NCBI GenBank assembly: GCA_964390935.1
Contig: CAYMKA010000002.1
Location: 1 to 32,189 of the forward strand
Direction of reading: 5' to 3'
DNA from: an uncultured bacterium
GTDB lineage: Bacteria; Margulisbacteria; CAYMKA01
Length of the DNA stretch: 32,189 nt
Made by a program: the position numbers and the translations under genes. A model generated the notes under the pieces. It saw only the letters and a program-made list of their open reading frames with translations, had not been told where the DNA came from and made no database searches. Positions 5,576 through 32,189 of this stretch are shown here, one piece after another. The stretch's first letter is position 1; every line of letters starts with the position of its first letter.

Positions 5576-5938
5576 ATGAATAATTTACAAATCGTTTCCG
5601 ACTATCTGACTAGTGGCATCAATGTAAATGTCCAAAATGAGTTCGGCAATACTGCTATTCTGCTCGCTTCCTGTAATGGTAATTTTCAAATAGTGAAACA
5701 CTTATTTAAACATCGAGCCAATTTAAATCTTGCCAATAAACAAGGAGATACAGCTCTGATTTGGGCAGCAGACAAAGGACATAAGGAAATTGTTAAATTT
5801 CTCATCTTACATGGAGCAGATTTGCAAGCCGTCAATCAGATTGGTCGTTCGGCACTATTTTGGGCAGAACAAAACGGTCATGAAGAAGTCATCCAGATTA
5901 TTCGTGACGCTCAAAAAACTTTGTTTCTTATTGCCTGA
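5576..5938 (+). CDS. Ankyrin-repeat protein (about 3 repeats, 120 aa)
   Basis: Repeated G-TAL..AA..GH.EIVK.L...GA-type units: GNTAILLASCNGNFQIVKHLFKHRANLN, GDTALIWAADKGHKEIVKFLILHGADLQ and GRSALFWAEQNGHEEVIQII. Confidence 0.85.
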   Translation: MNNLQIVSDYLTSGINVNVQNEFGNTAILLASCNGNFQIVKHLFKHRANLNLANKQGDTALIWAADKGHKEIVKFLILHGADLQAVNQIGRSALFWAEQNGHEEVIQIIRDAQKTLFLIA

Positions 5939-11820: not shown

Positions 11821-12636
11821 CTAGAGTGATTTTAACCATACCAGCACATCCTTAAAAACTTTTTCTCGATCTAAATCAATTGAAATTCCATGAAACATTT
11901 GCGGATAAAGCACATACTTTGTTCGTTTAGATTTTTTGGCGAAGTCTTCTGTGACCGACGCATTCATAAATAAATCTTGCCCGCCTTGAGCGATATAAAT
12001 AGGCACATTAAATTTTTCGGCATTTTTTCGAACTCTTACTCTCACTTGTAAGTTTTGAAGCAACGTTGAGGGACTGGCAACATGTTTTTCATTTACATCT
12101 TGGCGCATCATCTTAATCATGGCCTGATCACGTGTGGTCATTTCGGGGTTAAAAGGCATCTTAAAAGCAAACCAGGGACAAAGGGGCAGCATCAAAGCAA
12201 TTTGAGCTCGTCGCCAAAGTGAAAAAGGCAGTTTGTCTTGTAGGGCCGGCGCAAATAAAACAAGCCCTTTAAAAACGTCGGGATAATCAAGTTGCATGCC
12301 TAGCAAAATCAGGGCGCCCATACTTTCGCCTAATCCAAAAACCGGTAATTTTTTTTCAGAAAGTTTATGTTGAATCATTTTATTAATGTCTTTGTAATAA
12401 GTTTTAAAAGAATTAATGTGCCCTGGAGTTTTTCCCGCATTGCTGCCCCAGCCGCGCATTTGAATGGCGCTCACCTCAAAGCCATTTACCACAAAAAATT
12501 GAGCTAAATCTTCCCAGCGCGAAGTAGGTGCTCCCATGCCATGCACTAATATCAAATGGGCTTTAGCGTCCGGCGCAGACCAGTTTTGCCAAATGAGCCC
12601 TTTTTCTATTTCTTTCCATTGGGGTTGGATAGCCAT
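11821..12636 (-). CDS. Alpha/beta hydrolase, monoacylglycerol-lipase/lysophospholipase-like
   Basis: LILVHGMG, nucleophile elbow GLGESMGA, a later GGQDLF (Asp) and MFHGI (His). The layout resembles the Hydrolase_4/MGL family. Its stop TAG directly abuts the glpK ATG (TAGATG). Confidence 0.7.
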   Translation of the reverse strand: MAIQPQWKEIEKGLIWQNWSAPDAKAHLILVHGMGAPTSRWEDLAQFFVVNGFEVSAIQMRGWGSNAGKTPGHINSFKTYYKDINKMIQHKLSEKKLPVFGLGESMGALILLGMQLDYPDVFKGLVLFAPALQDKLPFSLWRRAQIALMLPLCPWFAFKMPFNPEMTTRDQAMIKMMRQDVNEKHVASPSTLLQNLQVRVRVRKNAEKFNVPIYIAQGGQDLFMNASVTEDFAKKSKRTKYVLYPQMFHGISIDLDREKVFKDVLVWLKSL

Positions 12637-13382
12637 TACATCATCCCCTTAAAAATACTTTTCCAATTGTATTGAGTCATCATAAAGCGTGGTAAATCAT
12701 AGCGATCAGAATTATTTTGCAGCGGCAAAATCACATTTTGAGCCCCTAACTGAAAAGCATATTCATAGCCCGCTTTTTTAACAGTTTGACGAGTTAATTC
12801 TCCTCTGGCCCCAAAGGGATAAACAAAAACAGTGATCGGAAAGCCTAATTCTCTAGCCATTTTTAATTTAGGCCGATAAATTTCTTTAAAAAATTGCTTA
12901 GGGTGTCTTCGATAAAAATAATCATCCAGTCGATAATGAGTGTAGCCATGCGCCGCAATCGTACAGCCTTCGCTGTGCATGGTTTTAAGTTGATCCCAAG
13001 ATAAAGCATAACGACTTCTAGAAATAATGCTGGGATACACCGCGATGAGCGGCTTTATCCCCATGGGTTTAAAAACTTCTTGATAGGCTTTCCAATGAGT
13101 GAAATGACCGTCATCCAGAGTAATCAGCACGTTTTTATTTCCTTTAAGAGGGTATAAAAAAAGTTCGTCATAAGAAACAAAACGATAACCACTTTCTTTT
13201 AAAATCTCCATTTGGGTACGTAGTTGTTCAATTGAAAAATCAATCGAAAATTTTCTAGTCCCTAAAAAACTGTGATAACACAAAACGGTCACCTGATTGG
13301 CAGCGCTTAAAGGAGCAATCAAAATAATGGAGATCACAATACCAAAAAGAGCTTTTTTAATCTTAGCGGGAGACATATTCAT
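12636..13382 (-). CDS. Secreted polysaccharide deacetylase (NodB-homology) family protein
   Basis: Has a signal peptide (KKALFGIVISIILIAPLSAA). NodB motifs are present: VLCYHSF, LITLDDGH, HGYTH. Its stop overlaps the next gene's ATG (TAATG). Confidence 0.75.
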   Translation of the reverse strand: MNMSPAKIKKALFGIVISIILIAPLSAANQVTVLCYHSFLGTRKFSIDFSIEQLRTQMEILKESGYRFVSYDELFLYPLKGNKNVLITLDDGHFTHWKAYQEVFKPMGIKPLIAVYPSIISRSRYALSWDQLKTMHSEGCTIAAHGYTHYRLDDYFYRRHPKQFFKEIYRPKLKMARELGFPITVFVYPFGARGELTRQTVKKAGYEYAFQLGAQNVILPLQNNSDRYDLPRFMMTQYNWKSIFKGMM

Positions 13383-13385
13383 CTT

Positions 13386-14954
13386 TTATTTTACCCAAAC
13401 CAACACCGAATATGGACCGGTAAATAATATTTCATGAATAGGCAGTTTTAGTAACTTCAGGCTTGAAGGATCTGTTAATAAAAAATAGTTTGTTTTCTTG
13501 TCTAAAAAATGAGCATCGGTTATGTACCTGTCAGCTGGACCGCTTACAAAATCTAAATAAGCTTGATCATGGCTCATGAAAAGAGGCCGACCTACAGGTC
13601 GGTAGATATAAAAATCTATCTTATTATAAAAACGGGTTTCTAGTTTTTTTTGCCAGGTCATATAAGGATTTGAATTTCGTACTATTGTTCCTGCTGAAAA
13701 TAAAAGGCCTATATACCCAGCGACCAGAGCTGCTAAAGCAGCGTATAAAAAATATTTTTTGGGATTAAAGCTATAAAAAGCAACAATTAAAAGAAAACCA
13801 ACCCAAAGCACAACTGGAATAAGGGCGGAGGAATTTAAAATTTGAGGGATTTGTGTCAAAAGTAAAAAACTAAAAAAAAGCGCTGCACAAGCCACGCCAA
13901 TTTTTTTTGTAGCAGGCTGTATCAATGATCCGCTCACTAAAATTGCAAGAGGGGGCATGAGTGATACAAAAGTTCTTAAATCATTTTGTCTGTAAAAGAA
14001 AAACAAAAATAAAATATTAGAAATAAACCAGATGAGAGAAAAAAACTCTAAAGAATTCTTTTTTTTAACTAAATTTTGAAATGAATACAGGTTTTTGTTA
14101 AACAAAAAAACAGTCCACGGGAAAAAAGCCAAGATCACGTAGCCTAAAATAGTTCCGTGCATGCCTAGCCCCAGATAACTGGTATTGTATTTACTTTGCC
14201 ACAACACACTCTTTAAATAACTTCCGTATTGAGTGGGAGCCGCAAAATAAGGCAGGCCCATCAGAATAACGACTGGCAGCAAAAAATAAGCAGCGCCGAC
14301 ATAAAATTCTTTTTGAAATAAAAATTTCAAAAACTTATCTCTAAAATCTCTGTCTATTAAAAATAAACTTAAAAAAGTCAGTCCACAAAAAATTAAAGCA
14401 AACCCGCTTTTAATCAAAAAACCAACCGCGACCCAAAAACATAAGAGCTTCCAATTTTTTTGGTCTTTCCAAAATCGATATAAATAAAATTGAGCCAAGG
14501 TTATTGCAAGTGTTAACAAGATATCTAGTTTAGGGGTTCGACTATAAACAAAAACGGCCAGTGTGGTTGCTAAAACAAAAGTTCCTACTAGAGCAAACTC
14601 ATCATCTTTTTGTTTTTTAAGAAAAAAATAAAAAACATATAGTAAAAGCAAATAATAAAGCACATTAGGAATGTGAACACTTATTTCACTGGCCGGAACA
14701 CGGATCCCTATCCATTTTAGGAACATTAGCGGAATAGCCTGCAGCCAAATTCCTAGAAGCGGTTTATCTAAAAAAGAAGCGGGGTCCCCTGGCTGCAAAA
14801 GTGGCATCAACCACTGGTTATGCAAAACCGTGTTTTTAATCGTTAGTGCATACATCGAGGCATCATCGGGTTGCAGGGCATTAAAAGACAGTGTGGCTAA
14901 AGAAAAAAAGGCCAGTATTCCCAACAGTCCGATTAAATATTTTTGATTGATCAT
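13386..14954 (-). CDS. Polytopic membrane glycosyltransferase, GT39/GT83 (PMT_2/ArnT-like) family, paralogue 2
   Basis: 522 aa with about 10 or more hydrophobic helices. It has the early periplasmic-loop acidic motif (QPDDASMYAL) typical of lipid-phosphate-sugar-dependent GT-C enzymes, and a soluble C-terminal domain. Confidence 0.6.
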   Translation of the reverse strand: MINQKYLIGLLGILAFFSLATLSFNALQPDDASMYALTIKNTVLHNQWLMPLLQPGDPASFLDKPLLGIWLQAIPLMFLKWIGIRVPASEISVHIPNVLYYLLLLYVFYFFLKKQKDDEFALVGTFVLATTLAVFVYSRTPKLDILLTLAITLAQFYLYRFWKDQKNWKLLCFWVAVGFLIKSGFALIFCGLTFLSLFLIDRDFRDKFLKFLFQKEFYVGAAYFLLPVVILMGLPYFAAPTQYGSYLKSVLWQSKYNTSYLGLGMHGTILGYVILAFFPWTVFLFNKNLYSFQNLVKKKNSLEFFSLIWFISNILFLFFFYRQNDLRTFVSLMPPLAILVSGSLIQPATKKIGVACAALFFSFLLLTQIPQILNSSALIPVVLWVGFLLIVAFYSFNPKKYFLYAALAALVAGYIGLLFSAGTIVRNSNPYMTWQKKLETRFYNKIDFYIYRPVGRPLFMSHDQAYLDFVSGPADRYITDAHFLDKKTNYFLLTDPSSLKLLKLPIHEILFTGPYSVLVWVK

Positions 14955-14969
14955 TTTTAACTTTTTATC

Positions 14970-16394
14970 TTAAATTTTTTGATGATCCAGTTTAAAACCT
15001 TTGGCTAAATAAAATTTTTTATTTAGAAGATGTTTTTCAATTCCGACAATGGCAGGCCATGACAATTCTTCAACTGATCCAAAATATTTTTTAAGATCGC
15101 TGGCTATTTTTGTTCCCGGGGCAATATAAAAAATTACATTGTCTCCCTTTTGTAAAAAGAAATTCCAACGAGCAAACTGCCCTCTTCCCCAGACTCCTTG
15201 ATCGACACTTAAAAGTTCTGTGGGCATTAAAACAGTTTTTTGTAGATAGTAGCTCAGTTGCCCGGCTGTTCCGTGAGAGTCGGTGTAAATTTGGCTAATT
15301 TTTGTTTGTTCATTTAATTTTTCAAAATAAGAAATAATTTTTTTATTTTCATGATATTGCTTTTGATACTTCAAAATTCCCGGGTCAGAAAACAAAAGAA
15401 CCGAAAGAAGCAAAACATTAAAAAGCACAGCGCTTATCAGCCAATAATTAATTTTTGTTTTTCTATCTATCTTATTATTTCTGTCCCATCTCTGCGCCAA
15501 AAGAATTAATAGAGGTGCATACGCCATCGCTGGCCAATGTGGCCATACCATAGCTTTAAAACTAAGCAGTCCAAAAAAAACAAAAGGCACGGCGCCCGAC
15601 CAAAACAGCAGCTTTTCTTGAAGAGAAAAATTATTTTTAAGGCGAAATAATCTAAACAAGGCGATTGTAAAAATGGGGGACAAATATAAAATTTGCTCTC
15701 CTAAATACTGACCCAAACCTGAAAATCCACGCCATTCATGAAGACGATTTAAATGAAATAAAAATGATTCCCCGCCCGAAAAGAAATTACTGATCAACAC
15801 TGGCAAAAAAATAAGTCCCGCAATGCCCGTGTAAATTAAAAATGATTTTAAATTTTGAATGGTTTTTAATTTTTTAGCAGAAGGCAGACAAGTCAAAATA
15901 AAAATAACTGGAAAAATAAGAATCATGGAATATTTAGAAACAAAACCAAGACCTGTAAAAATTCCTGCCCAAATCAAATTTGTTTGTTTTTGATTTTTTA
16001 ACCACTCTAATAAAAAATAAATCGTTAAAAGATAAAATAAAATAAACGGGATTTCGACCGTTAACACCAAGGCCATCACCAATGCATAGGGTGTTAACCA
16101 AAACATAAGCGCTGCCAGCCATGAATTTGAAATTTTATAAATCACAGCCGCAATGCCAAGACTTAATAAAACACAGCCTAAACGACTCGCGAGCAAAGGA
16201 TCAATCGGTAGTTTTGTAAAAATAAAATTTAAAAACGAAATCATCGGAGGGTGATCGACATAACTGAGACTTAAATGTTTAGCCCACAATAAATAGTAGG
16301 CTTCGTCAGCAGTGGGTGGAAATAAGAAAACTAAAAATAATCGCAAGACAAAAACAGCTGCCAACAGCCAAAAATAAACGGGAAGTTTTTTCAC
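14970..16394 (-). CDS. Polytopic membrane glycosyltransferase, GT39/GT83 (ArnT-like) family, paralogue 1
   Basis: 474 aa with a GTG start. TADEAYYLLWAKHLSLSYVDHPPM closely matches the DEAYY..W....L.Y.DHPP signature of ArnT/PMT_2 proteins. It has many TM helices. Confidence 0.7.
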   Translation of the reverse strand: MKKLPVYFWLLAAVFVLRLFLVFLFPPTADEAYYLLWAKHLSLSYVDHPPMISFLNFIFTKLPIDPLLASRLGCVLLSLGIAAVIYKISNSWLAALMFWLTPYALVMALVLTVEIPFILFYLLTIYFLLEWLKNQKQTNLIWAGIFTGLGFVSKYSMILIFPVIFILTCLPSAKKLKTIQNLKSFLIYTGIAGLIFLPVLISNFFSGGESFLFHLNRLHEWRGFSGLGQYLGEQILYLSPIFTIALFRLFRLKNNFSLQEKLLFWSGAVPFVFFGLLSFKAMVWPHWPAMAYAPLLILLAQRWDRNNKIDRKTKINYWLISAVLFNVLLLSVLLFSDPGILKYQKQYHENKKIISYFEKLNEQTKISQIYTDSHGTAGQLSYYLQKTVLMPTELLSVDQGVWGRGQFARWNFFLQKGDNVIFYIAPGTKIASDLKKYFGSVEELSWPAIVGIEKHLLNKKFYLAKGFKLDHQKI

Positions 16395-27237: not shown

Positions 27238-27660
27238 ATGTTACCAGCACTTGTCAGATCAAATTTTGGAAATCTATTTAATTGGGAGGATGACGTTAAT
27301 AAGCTTCTTGATATCCAGTCGGGATGGGCTGTTAATTTTCCCAAACTTGATATCCATGAAGACAAAGATAATTATTACGTTGAAGCTGATTTAGCAGGTC
27401 TTGATAAAAAAGATGTCTCATTAAAATTCAAAGACGGCATTCTCACCATTAGCGGAGAACGCAAAAATGAAAAGGAAGTCAAAAGAGAAGACTACTATCG
27501 CCGCGAACGTTCTTTTGGAAAGTTTGAAAGAAGTGTTTCGTTGCCCAGCGACGTCAATGGTTCTGCCATTAAAGCTGACTTCAAAAACGGTGTTTTAGAA
27601 ATAAAACTACCTAAGCTCGAAGAAAAAAAAGAAAAAGAAATTACGATTAACGTCGCTTAA
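27238..27660 (+). CDS. Small heat-shock protein, Hsp20/alpha-crystallin family
   Basis: Alpha-crystallin domain (DIHEDKDNYYVEADLAGLDKKDVSLKFKDGILTISGER...FERSVSLP...NGVLEIKLPK). A strong SD, GGAGGAG, lies 3 nt upstream of the ATG. Confidence 0.92.
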   Translation: MLPALVRSNFGNLFNWEDDVNKLLDIQSGWAVNFPKLDIHEDKDNYYVEADLAGLDKKDVSLKFKDGILTISGERKNEKEVKREDYYRRERSFGKFERSVSLPSDVNGSAIKADFKNGVLEIKLPKLEEKKEKEITINVA

Positions 27661-29498
27661 GCCGTTACTTTAGATTTTCGTTTTCGTAAATTAGGGTCGA
27701 GCTCTGCCTTCCTCAGTCGAATAGACTCGGGAGTCACCTCGACCAATTCGTCATCGCCGATAAATTCAATCGCACGCTCTAAAGTCATTTTCATGGGAGT
27801 GGTTAAGACAACCGCTTCTTCTGCCCCTTTGTTACGAACGTTAGTTAATTTCTTTTCTTTGCAAGGATTGACTTCCATGTCGGCATCATCTTTTGCGGCA
27901 CGACCAATAATCATTCCGGCATAGCATTCCACACCAGAACCTAAAATCAATTGTCCGCGTTCTTGTAAGTTAAACAAAGCAAACGCTACGGTTTTGCCTG
28001 TTTCAGTAGAAACCATCACTGCAGTATTGCGAACTTCAATTTCACCTTTAAAAGGTTCATAGCCGTCGAACAAAGTGTTCATCGTTCCCGTTCCGCGAGT
28101 ATCGGTTAAAAATTCATTGCGGTAACCAATCAGCCCACGCGAAGGAACTTTGAATTCTAAATGAGTTCCGCTCGTGGTGGTTTCCATATTGGTCATTTCG
28201 CCTTTTCGTAAGCCCATTTTTTCAATCACCACACCAGAATATTCTTCATCCACATCAATCATGACCATTTCGATTGGCTCCATTTTTTGACCATTCTCCA
28301 TTTTAAAAATTACTTCTGGTTTTGAAACAGCCAGTTCATAACCTTCACGGCGCATACTTTCAATTAAAACAGTGAGATGCAATTCACCACGTCCTGAAAC
28401 TTTAAATTTATCTGCGGCACTGGTGTCTTCGACACGCAGCGAAACATTGCTTTTTAATTCTCGGTATAAACGGTCGCGCAAATGACGACTGGTAACAAAC
28501 TTGCCTTCCTTACCAGCGAACGGAGAATTGTTCACCATAAAAAACATCGAAACAGTCGGCTCATCAATAGCTACTGTTGGAATGAGTTGAGGATTTTCAG
28601 TCACGCCCGAAACGGTATCGCCAATTTCCACTTCATCCAGACCAGCCAACGAAATAATATCGCCTGTTCCGGCAGATTCAATTTCAGTTTGTTTTAAGCC
28701 CAGAAAAGTAAAAAGTTTAGTAATACGCGCTTGTTTATGGGCACCATTACTTTTTAATAACATCACCGAGTCGCCTACTTTGATTTGGCCATTAAAAATT
28801 TTTCCAATCACCAGACGGCCCACATAATCGTTGTAATCGAGAGTCGTCGCTAAAAATTGAAAGGTTTGGTTAATATCTCCTTTGGGAGAAGGGATATGTT
28901 TCACCATCGTGTTAAACAAAGGACGCATATCGGTATTTGGCTCGGTCAATTCTAATTTGGCATAGCCCTCTTTAGCAGATGCATACACCACTGGAAAATC
29001 GAGCTGATTGTCATTAGCGTGGAGCGCAACGAACAAATCAAAAACTTTATCTAACACCCAGCTCGGACGAGCATTGGGTCTGTCGATTTTATTGATACAA
29101 ACTATGGCTTTGTGCCCTAAAGACAAAGCCTTACGAAGTACGAATTTTGTTTGAGGCATTGGACCATCAACCGCATCCACGACAAGCACTACACCGTCAA
29201 CCATTTGAAGGACACGCTCTACTTCTCCGCCAAAGTCAGCGTGACCTGGAGTGTCTACAATATTAATTTTATAATCAATGTTTTCGTTTCGATAATGGAT
29301 CGCGGTGTTCTTAGCACGAATCGTGATTCCGCGTTCACGTTCTTGATCCATCGAGTCCATCATGCGTTCAGAAGTTTTTTCATTAGAACGAAACGTGCCA
29401 CTTTGTTTTAAAAGTTCATCAACCAGAGTGGTCTTTCCATGATCAACGTGGGCAATAATTGCCAGATTTCTAATTTTATCGCTCGTAACTTGTTCCAT
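27657..29498 (-). CDS. typA: Translational GTPase TypA/BipA
   Basis: IRNLAIIAHVDHGKTTLVD, DTPGHADFGGEV and NKID G-motifs, with 613-aa EF-G-like domain order. An AAGGAG SD lies upstream. Confidence 0.95.
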   Translation of the reverse strand: MEQVTSDKIRNLAIIAHVDHGKTTLVDELLKQSGTFRSNEKTSERMMDSMDQERERGITIRAKNTAIHYRNENIDYKINIVDTPGHADFGGEVERVLQMVDGVVLVVDAVDGPMPQTKFVLRKALSLGHKAIVCINKIDRPNARPSWVLDKVFDLFVALHANDNQLDFPVVYASAKEGYAKLELTEPNTDMRPLFNTMVKHIPSPKGDINQTFQFLATTLDYNDYVGRLVIGKIFNGQIKVGDSVMLLKSNGAHKQARITKLFTFLGLKQTEIESAGTGDIISLAGLDEVEIGDTVSGVTENPQLIPTVAIDEPTVSMFFMVNNSPFAGKEGKFVTSRHLRDRLYRELKSNVSLRVEDTSAADKFKVSGRGELHLTVLIESMRREGYELAVSKPEVIFKMENGQKMEPIEMVMIDVDEEYSGVVIEKMGLRKGEMTNMETTTSGTHLEFKVPSRGLIGYRNEFLTDTRGTGTMNTLFDGYEPFKGEIEVRNTAVMVSTETGKTVAFALFNLQERGQLILGSGVECYAGMIIGRAAKDDADMEVNPCKEKKLTNVRNKGAEEAVVLTTPMKMTLERAIEFIGDDELVEVTPESIRLRKAELDPNLRKRKSKVTA

Positions 29499-29585: not shown

Positions 29586-29864
29586 TTACTGATTCCAGAA
29601 TTCCACGCCAATTTGGATATCGTTTTGGGGAATGTCATAAGGGGCTAAAACCATATAAATCGGCAGACGGTATTCTGCGAAAAAACGCATCCAATTAGCA
29701 TTTTGACCTTTGGGATCAAAGGCAAATTTGTAATGAAAGCCTAGGATGTTTACCCAGGTATTTTGAAAATAATATACCCCTCTTAAATTTTTAAATGTTT
29801 CAAAGCCATAATAAATCGACAAATCTGTTTGACCTGGTTTATTTTCATTAAAATTAAAACCCAT
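29586..29864 (-). pseudogene. C-terminal fragment of a split outer-membrane-type protein gene
   Basis: The 92-aa ORF starts MGFNFNENKP inside copy 1 of the 80-bp duplication. That peptide also ends the correct-frame part of the upstream fragment. The remainder is Tyr/Phe/Trp-rich and beta-strand-like, ending GVEFWNQ. Confidence 0.75.
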
Positions 29865-29995
29865 TTTCCCAGTCGATAAAATTAACCAGTCATCATAGTT
29901 GGTCGCTCTAAAATAGGTTTATTTTCATTAAAATTAAAACCCATTTTCCCAGTCGATAAAATTAACCAGTCATCATAGTTGGTCGCTCTAAAATC
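29836..29995. repeat. Perfect 2 x 80-bp tandem direct duplication (79/80 identical)
   Basis: 29836-29915 and 29916-29995 are identical base for base except the last position (A at 29915, C at 29995). GGTTT occurs at the start of each copy and immediately after copy 2 (29996-30000), giving 5-bp microhomology. Confidence 0.95.
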
Positions 29996-30757
29996 GGTTT
30001 GACGATGATCCATTCGAAAATACCAGTCTTGCCATAAGTTTTTTTGTTTTAATTCTTTGTAAAAACGAAAACCATAAACCGTGTCGTCATTGGGACCAGT
30101 CTTAGGAAAAGGCGCATAAGGCACAATCAAAGGATCAGGTCCTTTATCATTCAGAACACTGTACGTAGCCTGATAAACATACAATTCAAAATCGTCGATC
30201 AAAGATAACAAGCCGTCTTTAAAAGCATTGTTGCCCCGAAAAGGTTTGGTACGCAAACCAAGAGCAGGGGCGACATGGTTAAAATATTCTTCTTGATCGC
30301 CGCCATATAAAATTTCGCCACCCAAATAAGGCTCTAAAGTTAAGCTGTCACCCAAATAAAATCGATAGCCCAAACGGGGCTCTAGCCTTAAAGAAAATTT
30401 GTTATAACCTTTCGACTGACGAGGCTGCAACTTGGTGGTTGCATAATCTAATCGGCCGTAGCCAGGCTCAAAATAAAAACCATTGCGATTTAAATTTCCT
30501 TGAGGAGTCTGTGTCACCACTTCTTTTGTTGGCAGTGGTTTAAGGGGTTGAGTCTGAATTAAAGGCACGGATTTTGCGCCAGGATTAATCGACTGCTGTT
30601 CCATGTATTTTTTAAGAGGGATGACTTTGATGTTTTGATTTGCTGAAACTAACTTATTGCTTTTAATTAAATTAAGATCATCATAACCAGCCAAAACAAT
30701 TGAAAAATTAAAAAGCGAAAAACAAATAAGTGCCGCCCCAAAAATTTTTATTTGCAC
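29882..30757 (-). pseudogene. N-terminal fragment of the same split gene (signal peptide plus beta-rich body)
   Basis: Signal peptide MQIKIFGAALICFSLFNFSIVLA. The frame is correct through ...STGKMGFNFNENKP, then reads 10 junk codons (ILERPTMMTG) to a stop after crossing the duplication junction. Confidence 0.75.
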
Positions 30758-30801
30758 CGACCGATTATAACGTTAGGTCTTTTTCTTAAAAGGCCTCCAT
30801 T

Positions 30802-30840
30802 TGGCTTATAACTTGCGTAAAAGAGCTTCTCTGTTATACT
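30802..30840 (+). promoter_or_regulatory. Candidate promoter(s) of the histone-like gene
   Basis: Sigma-70-like TTGCGT-N16-TATACT (30813-30818 / 30835-30840). An overlapping sigma-54-like TGGCTTataacTTGCG (30802-30817) has GG-N10-GC spacing. I cannot tell which, if either, is used. Confidence 0.3.
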
Positions 30841-30869
30841 GCGCTATCTTATTTAAGAAAGGAGCTCTC

Positions 30870-31061
30870 ATGGCAAAAAAAGGCGGAAAAGAAGTTTTAG
30901 TAGTGACTTCAAAAGTAAAAGCGTTCAACAAAAGCAAAAAGTTTTTGACTTCAGCTGATTCAATTCAAGCTTTAAACGAAAAAATTTATACTCTTTTGGA
31001 AAATGCTCATACTCGTACAAAAGCAAATAAACGTTCTACTATTAAGCCTCAAGATTTCTAA
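30870..31061 (+). CDS. Bacterial histone-fold DNA-binding protein (HBb/Bd0055-like), 63 aa
   Basis: MAKKGGKEVLVVTSKVKAFNKSKKFLTSADSIQALNEKIYTLLENAHTRTKANKRSTIKPQDF is basic, with a short helix, a loop and a long helix. KRSTIKPQD corresponds to the GRKTIKAED motif of archaeal HMf histones. An AAGGAG SD lies 5 nt before the ATG at 30870, and an intrinsic terminator follows. The TTG at 30801 is an ORF-caller extension. Confidence 0.7.
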   Translation: MAKKGGKEVLVVTSKVKAFNKSKKFLTSADSIQALNEKIYTLLENAHTRTKANKRSTIKPQDF

Positions 31062-31086
31062 TAATCTTTTGATTTAGTATTAGAAG

Positions 31087-31121
31087 CCCCGTTAGATTTA
31101 AAAATTTAACGGGGTTTTTTT
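31087..31121 (+). terminator. Rho-independent terminator of the histone-like gene
   Basis: CCCCGTTAgattt / aaatTTAACGGGG inverted repeat (31087-31114) followed by T7 (31115-21), beginning 26 nt after the stop codon. Confidence 0.8.
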
Positions 31122-31138
31122 ATTTTAGAAGAAATTAA

Positions 31139-31891
31139 TTAAGATTCGTAATCAATACGCGCAGGCAATACAAAAAGTTTATTAATCCCGATGTAATAAA
31201 AAATAAACCACAGCGCCATCCACATTAAACTTAGATAATAAACTGAAACAGTTCTTAAATTAGCCCAAATTTCAGGAACATCTGTAAAAATAATCATCAG
31301 GCCCACAATTCCTAAAATGAGAAAACCCTTAAAACGTTCGGTCTTTCGGTAAGCGGGGGAGCTGGTGAATACTCTGGAGAAAAAAACAATAGAGAAGAAG
31401 CCAAAAATGACCAGCCAGATAAACCCCTGAATCGTTAACATCACATCTCGGCCAAAGGCATTGATTTGAGGATCTAAAATCAAATCAGTTTCAAAAGCCA
31501 GATTCCAGGAACCAAATTCATAAAATGAGCAAAAAATAGCAATAATGACCCCCATGCTGTTAATAAAGTATCGGCGCTGAGCCAAATCAACTTTTAAATA
31601 AGTGGCTAAAAACATCGTGATAAAAAAAACAAAACAAATGCTTGAGAACTGCCAGCCCATTTTAAAAATCATGCCTGAAATCATGGCATGTCCCGATAAG
31701 AAAAAGTAAATTTGCCCCAGCAGAAAAAATAAAGGTTTAGTGGTAATGGCCATTAAAGCCAGAGTTGCCCAAAACAATTCTTTTTTGTTTTTATTTATAA
31801 AATATTTGCCGAGCAATATCCCTGACAAAATGCCGCCAATAATTAAAACCACCAGTTCGGCAAAAATGACAAAAAGCATTTCAACGGTCAT
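31139..31891 (-). CDS. Polytopic integral membrane protein of unknown function (250 aa)
   Basis: About 7-8 hydrophobic helices. It starts 5 nt downstream of the GT2 gene stop, so it is probably co-transcribed. I recognise no family motif. Confidence 0.55.
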   Translation of the reverse strand: MTVEMLFVIFAELVVLIIGGILSGILLGKYFINKNKKELFWATLALMAITTKPLFFLLGQIYFFLSGHAMISGMIFKMGWQFSSICFVFFITMFLATYLKVDLAQRRYFINSMGVIIAIFCSFYEFGSWNLAFETDLILDPQINAFGRDVMLTIQGFIWLVIFGFFSIVFFSRVFTSSPAYRKTERFKGFLILGIVGLMIIFTDVPEIWANLRTVSVYYLSLMWMALWFIFYYIGINKLFVLPARIDYES

Positions 31892-31896
31892 GTTTT

Positions 31897-32189
31897 TTAC
31901 CTAAAGGGTTTGAAGTCAGCACTGGAATGGCCGCGAAAATACATATTGAGATAGTTTTTAAGATGATGCCAAAAAAACTTAGCGACTCCCATGCCCAGGA
32001 CACGCCTTGCAGAGGTAAAGACAACCAGTCTTGAATCATAAAGAATTTTGCCTTGAGAACGAATACGTAACCCCAAATCAACATCTTCAGCAGTAACAAG
32101 TTCAGTGCGGTATCCCCCGATCGCTTTATAAGCAGATTGGCGTACTGCAAAATTCATGCCTGATAAATGTGGTTGTCCTGATAAATGAT
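31897..32189 (-). CDS. Family-2 glycosyltransferase, C-terminal part; the 5' end lies outside the window
   Basis: The frame is open to the window edge (..HLSGQPHLSGMNFAVRQSAYKAIGGYRTELVTAEDVDLGLRIRSQGKILY). G.N.A.RR......GG......EDxDL..R is the typical GT2 C-terminal half. The ATG at 32157 is internal. Confidence 0.75.
   Translation of the reverse strand, partial: HLSGQPHLSGMNFAVRQSAYKAIGGYRTELVTAEDVDLGLRIRSQGKILYDSRLVVFTSARRVLGMGVAKFFWHHLKNYLNMYFRGHSSADFKPFR

Follow-up and report, generated by a model that had tools for sequence, protein, structure and literature searches.

The contig analysed here carries a tandem duplication of 80 nt within a single gene, predicted to encode an outer-membrane beta-barrel protein, and both the extra copy and the base A at its junction are private to this contig, derived and disruptive. 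The duplication is of an ordinary kind, being either a young slippage mutation or an artefact of joining, and involves no new biology. The coordinates of the features concerned are compiled in Table 1; they refer to the window, i.e., the whole stretch of 32,189 nt that was analysed.

Table 1. Position of the repeat copies, the disrupted gene and its neighbours in the window.
Feature	Position	Strand	Remarks
typA/bipA, conserved downstream neighbour	27657–29498	-	TIGR01394, 921 bits vs cutoff 757
Disrupted signal-peptide-bearing gene of a predicted outer-membrane beta-barrel	29586–30757	-	Wild type 1092 nt, 363 aa
Downstream half-ORF, 92 aa	29586–29864	-	Last predicted beta-strands and conserved C-terminus ...EFWNQ; without signal peptide
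Copy 1 of the 80-nt unit	29836–29915		Ends in the duplication junction (29915, A), a base private to this contig
Upstream half-ORF, 291 aa	29882–30757	-	Signal peptide, linker and predicted strands to residue 281, then 10 out-of-frame codons
Copy 2 of the 80-nt unit	29916–29995		First in gene orientation; with the right flank it matches the wild type throughout, C at 29995 included
GGTTT pentamer	29996–30000		Also at 29836–29840 and 29916–29920; AAACC in gene orientation
Predicted Sec signal peptide	30689–30757	-	MQIKIFGAALICFSLFNFSIVLA, then GYDD; read from sequence
Divergent 63-aa gene, upstream neighbour	30870–31061	+	Conserved; no assigned function

Structure of the tandem repeat

In a base-by-base comparison, the two copies of the unit agree at 79 of 80 positions; the lone mismatch is situated at unit position 80, where copy 1 has A (29915) and copy 2 has C (29995). 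An earlier reading of this DNA, made from the letters only (the sequence-only reading), had described an exact 80-bp tandem duplication with a differing final base, and the coordinates that it gave are precise to the nucleotide. At a per-base match probability of 0.264, an agreement of 79 in 80 bases cannot arise by chance. TRF finds one strong array, at 29836–30000, with a period of 80, 2.1 copies, 98% matches and a score of 323, and between 29586 and 30900 it reports this period-80 array alone, with no contingency tract of simple sequence repeats with units of 1–9 nt. The best among the other direct repeats recovered by a search of the whole 32-kb window measure 25–29 nt and exhibit 72–80% identity. 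N characters occur nowhere in the window, and no join marker lies at the site.

The 80-nt periodicity runs on for five bases past copy 2, and GGTTT, which the sequence-only reading had noticed at the copy boundaries, is indeed present at all three of them (Table 1). The chance of such a 5-nt match at the boundary is around 0.0013; the pentamer represents either a microhomology of 5 nt at the boundaries of the duplication or a piece of an 80-nt overlap between contigs. In gene orientation, the wild-type sequence reads ...CAAACC/GATTTT...(unit)...AATAAACC/AGGTCA... (slashes at the borders of the unit), such that the unit is bounded by two AAACC pentamers lying 80 nt apart. The single-copy arrangement consists of the left flank TTTGACCT, the 80 nt and the right flank GGTTTGACGATG, around 100 nt altogether, and the duplication creates the junction sequence CTCTAAAATAGGTTTATTTTC, or 5'-GGTCGCTCTAAAATAGGTTTATTTTCATT-3'. 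The base preceding copy 1 (29835) is a T, and the A at 29915 fits neither of the neighbouring contexts.

Effect on the reading frame

As 80 is not divisible by 3, the intragenic duplication shifts the frame, and the product is abolished by a stop 10 codons further on. The split into two ORFs put forward in the sequence-only reading is borne out: the first ORF (291 aa, including the 10 extra codons) starts with GTG and ends ...GKMGFNFNENKP, followed by ILERPTMMTG and the stop, and the second (92 aa) begins MGFNFNENKPGQTD and has its ATG 17 nt past the stop of the first. Equally correct is the proposal that removal of one copy yields a continuous frame of 1092 nt, since deletion of either copy results in 363 codons and a stop, with residue 255 being D if copy 1 is deleted and Y if copy 2 is deleted.

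The unit corresponds to nucleotides 763–842 of the gene, i.e., codons 255–281, and begins in phase 0. In the AF2 model these codons span one predicted strand (around residues 263–275) and its flanks, and according to the strand map of this model the 291-aa product is without the last four predicted strands and without the conserved C-terminal end. Neither the 291-aa nor the 92-aa product would thus be able to form a barrel, from which we infer that the allele is null. Concerning annotation, the two 'hypothetical proteins' should be taken as one disrupted gene, or corrected to the intact 363-aa form.

The single-copy allele in other assemblies

A search of 5.8 billion protein clusters revealed a protein of 363 aa (P0001) that is 100% identical to the reconstructed protein over 100% of its length. 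Its source are ENA and Logan metagenome assemblies, in which it is encoded by six contigs from six samples (ERZ27282978, ERZ27282971, ERZ3756520, SRR6837566, ERZ27282891, and ERZ27286469). In a cluster look-up, the 291-aa and 92-aa products are known from a single NCBI contig, namely the window itself (32189 nt), and the remaining four members of that protein cluster all possess 363 aa.

These six contigs encoding P0001 (L001–L006) align with the window minus copy 1 from end to end over 1.3–3.9 kb, with 100.000% identity and 0 gaps. With the window left unmodified, BLAST splits each alignment into two pieces overlapping in the unit, with one mismatch at 29915: from the right flank the alignments are free of mismatches through 29916, and those entering copy 1 from the left flank contain one mismatch each. 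Besides the extra copy, the junction base is the sole difference between this contig and L001–L006. Seven further contigs of the same species (L007, L093–L096, L097, and L098), which encode the four remaining cluster members and are 98.97–99.5% identical to the window, possess a single copy and are without the junction, and the alignment of L007 with the window minus the extra copy is gap-free over 9.4 kb. The intact single-copy gene is hence found in 13 of 13 other same-species contigs from 13 samples, every one of which encodes D255 (C on the plus strand), and no other duplication, short or long, turned up in the barrel gene of these contigs. Assemblies give the majority allele only, such that minor alleles are invisible in this comparison of 13 contigs. 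Because six samples of the same strain were assembled with a single copy, the duplication, if real, is not fixed in that strain; the allele would be very young and private, and may be a population variant in the sample that was assembled.

Orthologues and gene order

In contigs of related species, which exhibit 80–84% nucleotide identity, the gene order is kept; the shared order comprises a GT2 glycosyltransferase, a membrane protein of 250 aa, the 63-aa gene (on the opposite strand), the barrel gene, typA, and HSP20. The barrel genes of these species are uninterrupted, with 371 aa in L089 and L091 and 396 aa in L092, and all of them end ...EFWNQ. The more divergent proteins P0018, P0020, and P0021 (20–37% identity) align continuously through the duplicated segment. 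An uninterrupted ORF of about 363 aa, which the sequence-only reading had expected in orthologues, is therefore what was encountered, namely in the identical protein and as a single gene in 13 same-species and three related-species contigs; an arrangement of two separate genes was found in none of the contigs compared.

The typA/bipA gene neighbouring the barrel gene served as the synteny anchor, and its synteny is kept in L007, L089, L091, L092, and L097. The 63-aa gene keeps its relative position in L001, L002, L004, L005, L007, L089, L092, L093, L096, and L098. As a separate observation on the anchor gene, an exact 8-mer pattern scan gave best matches of typA/bipA among GTDB species representatives with 54–59% identity, in unrelated phyla; a pattern scan for the barrel in the genome collection, which does not extend to the source genome or its relatives, yielded no related gene.

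Upstream of the barrel gene, positions 30870–32189 of the window contain the 63-aa gene, the 250-aa protein and the GT2 glycosyltransferase, the last being cut by the end of the window. This block is conserved in all related contigs (L007, 4845–6570; L089, 2996–4738; L092, 2892–4605; L098, 1163–2888). The 250-aa protein (31139–31891, minus strand) is a multi-pass membrane protein and yields no Pfam match. One may speculate that the block is a module for synthesis and export of a surface polysaccharide that makes use of the barrel.

The intact 363-aa protein

The predicted signal peptide (Table 1), as judged by eye, combines a hydrophobic core with a basic n-region, and a small-x-small motif precedes GYDD; a hydrophobic N-terminal segment is present in all aligned homologues, and AF2 places an N-terminal helix at residues 3–26. 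The following linker (around residues 24–90, about 65 residues) contains many Pro, Lys, Thr, and Gln residues; its length is variable and differs among the orthologues of 363, 371, and 396 aa. In the longest of them (L092, 4724–5914, 396 aa), the N-terminal linker holds a (PKET)n tetrapeptide run.

With an alignment of 8 sequences, AF2 gave a pTM of 0.62 and a mean pLDDT of 65, with values mostly above 70 across residues 91–363, and predicted 12–14 beta-strands within residues 93–362. Foldseek comparison of the model with the PDB resulted in 38 matches at E <= 1e-3, and 50 of the 50 matches listed are outer-membrane barrels, including general porins, the COG4313 channel, KdgM/NanC, OmpG, CymA, FapF, and autotransporter translocators. 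Among these barrels, the ten that rank highest have Foldseek probabilities of 0.97–1.00; the matches show TM-scores of 0.2–0.54 and sequence identities of 7–14%. The last strand ends ...IQIGVEFWNQ, with aromatic residues at -4 and -3 and a non-aromatic terminus. The C-terminal motif [FL]W[NI][QR] is found in five of six aligned homologues, the most distant one, P0021, ending ...DFTSGR.

Pfam contains no family that matches the protein at cutoff (the best being the Autotransporter beta-domain with 16.3 bits versus 26, and OMP_b-brl reaching E = 0.36), NCBIfam yields no match, and a profile search of PDB sequences returned nothing at E <= 10. The description of the protein as secreted, beta-rich and of outer-membrane type, given in the sequence-only reading, agrees with the signal peptide and with the AF2 and Foldseek results; these predictions support it at the level of the fold class, and placement in a named family fails.

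Related proteins are few: six were recovered when 1.84 billion cluster representatives were searched exhaustively with HMMER, and four by a profile search of an index of 5.8 billion clusters. The protein belongs to a very small, lineage-restricted orphan family of predicted outer-membrane barrels (P0001, P0002, and P0017–P0021). In this species and in the related-species contigs examined, the gene lies next to typA/bipA. The tiny family is of mild interest to surveys of how diverse outer-membrane proteins are.

Genomic context

The window represents an ordinary chromosomal stretch of a bacterium of Gram-negative type with around 38% GC. Its genes include those for the beta subunit of a 2-oxoacid:ferredoxin oxidoreductase, thioredoxin reductase, class I ribonucleotide reductase, glycerol kinase, NfuA, YifB, TrmB, an M23 peptidase, RpoN, and TypA; TsaD, a CitMHS transporter and HSP20 were recognized by Pfam matches on the syntenic contig L007. 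Scans of the window for tRNA genes and Rfam families found none.

Two other regions of the window may be mentioned. An ORF of 120 aa with ankyrin repeats (5576–5938, plus strand) shows a sub-cutoff match to models of the Legionella Dot/Icm ankyrin effectors AnkH, AnkY, and AnkX, a similarity that hints at a possible host- or amoeba-associated lifestyle. On the minus strand, 12636–16394 comprises a PgaB/IcaB-like polysaccharide deacetylase (12636–13382), an unannotated ORF of 522 aa and a putative glycosyltransferase (14970–16394), and may constitute a surface-polysaccharide cluster; GC content is lower around this stretch (0.34 at 14001–16000).

Origin of the duplication

A real and young slipped-strand mutation, with no programmed switch involved, has about an even chance of being the correct explanation. 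Two short direct repeats are the classic substrate for slipped-strand, microhomology-mediated duplication, and RecA-independent misalignment between short direct repeats is reportedly, from the work of Lovett and colleagues, an established route of bacterial mutagenesis. The two AAACC pentamers would here allow slipped-strand, microhomology-mediated template switching during replication, in the course of which the nascent end would unpair at the second pentamer, re-pair at the first and recopy the interval, and a single wrong base (A at 29915) would have been incorporated at the switch point or beside it. The resulting N-terminal product of 291 aa would be exported, and, without the last strands and the C-terminal end, would be unable to close a barrel. 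In favour of slippage are the absence of Ns and of any other suspicious repeat in the window. The misincorporation has to be added to this explanation because clean slippage predicts C at 29915, whereas an A is found there that occurs in no other contig; one would not expect a point change precisely at the junction in an allele otherwise free of mutations, and an error near a contig end explains it better. Assistance of slippage by a hairpin is unsupported by the DNA fold (z = -0.58).

Such a contig-end error is part of the main alternative, a serious possibility if somewhat short of even, according to which two pieces overlapping by 80 nt (around 1–29920 and 29921–32189) were placed end to end, while the organism possesses an intact gene. 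An A-for-C error at 29915, within 1–6 nt of the left piece's end, would have blocked recognition of the overlap, which scaffolding, gap closing or contig merging would then have duplicated, the right piece measuring just 2.3 kb. Besides the extra copy, it is the junction base alone that differs from six independent contigs, and the private A sits exactly at the junction, where a sequence error at an overlap boundary would lie; it fits a contig-end error with an unmerged overlap at least as well as slippage in vivo. Furthermore, GGTTT needs no coincidence if it is simply part of the overlap, such that a single assumption accounts for the private A, for the second copy and for the periodicity running on through GGTTT, and all 13 of the other same-species assemblies have the single copy. 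Against an artefact stand the lack of Ns or of a join marker at the site, the lack of a second such event in 32 kb, and the otherwise gap-free alignment with L007 over 9.4 kb, which indicates a clean assembly. Pure de Bruijn assemblers emit only junction k-mers that are contained in reads; a junction k-mer absent from the reads is therefore impossible in their output, and a step of overlap merging or gap closing would be needed. A branch artefact of the de Bruijn type, in which a contig X+A is joined to X+C (X = 79 = k-1), was set aside in favour of the general 80-nt overlap with an error close to the contig end, as the GGTTT match would then be a coincidence of around 0.0013. False duplications are documented in other assemblies, where sequencing errors, gaps and wrongly filled gaps were implicated (PMC9516828). 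The duplication site constitutes a simple and decisive spot check of assembly quality. If real, the duplication is a loss-of-function mutation caught soon after it arose, in an uncultured lineage and affecting a surface protein; it would agree with selection against a receptor used by phages or predators, such selection being only a possibility.

The sequence-only reading had left three options, i.e., a very recent event, a reversible one or an artefact; the private allele agrees with youth or artefact, whereas an evolved switch is disfavoured, the duplication being present in one of 14 contigs and showing no recurrence. That gain and loss of the 80-nt copy toggles a surface barrel as an evolved on/off switch, e.g., for escape from phages or predators, appears improbable. 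The protein does belong to a surface-exposed class that is often phase-variable, and slippage or recombination that removes one copy, at whatever point of the 79 identical bases, would keep the C beside the right flank and thereby regenerate the exact wild type. A precedent is known from pneumococci, in which spontaneous duplications within cap3A, cap8E, and tts reportedly lead to phase variation (Waite 2001, 2003, cited in PMC4022640). However, the OFF allele is found in a single one of the 14 same-species contigs, and the gene is without any other duplication; the AAACC pair is present in L007 of the same species but absent in L089 and L092; and the site is not special, with 254 pairs of direct repeats of at least 5 nt, spaced 20–200 nt apart, in the gene. 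DNA structure favouring slippage is likewise lacking (z = -0.58), and every tandem duplication is intrinsically revertible, so that revertibility is no evidence of design. Nothing points to an evolved switch or to selection for switching. Were it a switch after all, duplication-mediated phase variation of the pneumococcal type would be extended to a Gram-negative outer-membrane protein in nature, with an uncultured and possibly host-associated bacterium toggling a lineage-specific barrel. Hardly worth considering is the notion that the two ORFs are genuine adjacent genes, which were split long ago or form a functional barrel in two parts and happen to share a repeat. Both frames are open, and the second has its ATG 17 nt beyond the first stop, but all homologues found are single polypeptides across the site, the copies differ at one of 80 bases, which leaves no time for an independent history, and the 92-aa ORF is without a signal peptide. 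As far as the sequences compared can tell, two genes are contradicted by the 363-aa match, the uninterrupted orthologues and the single-copy contigs.

Comparison with known systems

The arrangement resembles slipped-strand duplications in that the copies lie head to tail, are bounded by a 5-nt direct repeat, measure tens of bases, produce a frameshift null and are precisely revertible. Unlike textbook slippage, the junction contains one non-templated base (A at 29915), and the case is known from an assembled contig alone. The false duplications reported in PMC9516828 are similar as well, in that two nearly identical copies lie side by side, their boundary holds a sequence error, and a gene is falsely split; those cases are far larger, however, and usually have a gap (in the assembly or in read depth) between the copies, whereas the assembled sequence here has none.

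With the pneumococcal capsule genes, the gene shares an intragenic tandem duplication that inactivates a cell-surface gene and whose precise excision would restore it. In the pneumococcus, many independent duplications and high-frequency switching have reportedly been demonstrated in culture (Waite et al. 2001, 2003, cited in PMC4022640), whereas here one event is found in one contig, with no recurrence.

Concerning the protein itself, the outer-membrane channels (the COG4313 channel, OmpG, KdgM/NanC, CymA, and the autotransporter translocators) have in common with the 363-aa protein a signal peptide and an all-beta barrel with an even number of strands, which for the latter is a prediction. 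The likeness is one of fold only, and the 363-aa protein differs from these channels in that it ends FWNQ instead of in a terminal aromatic residue and possesses a variable linker of around 65 residues before the barrel.
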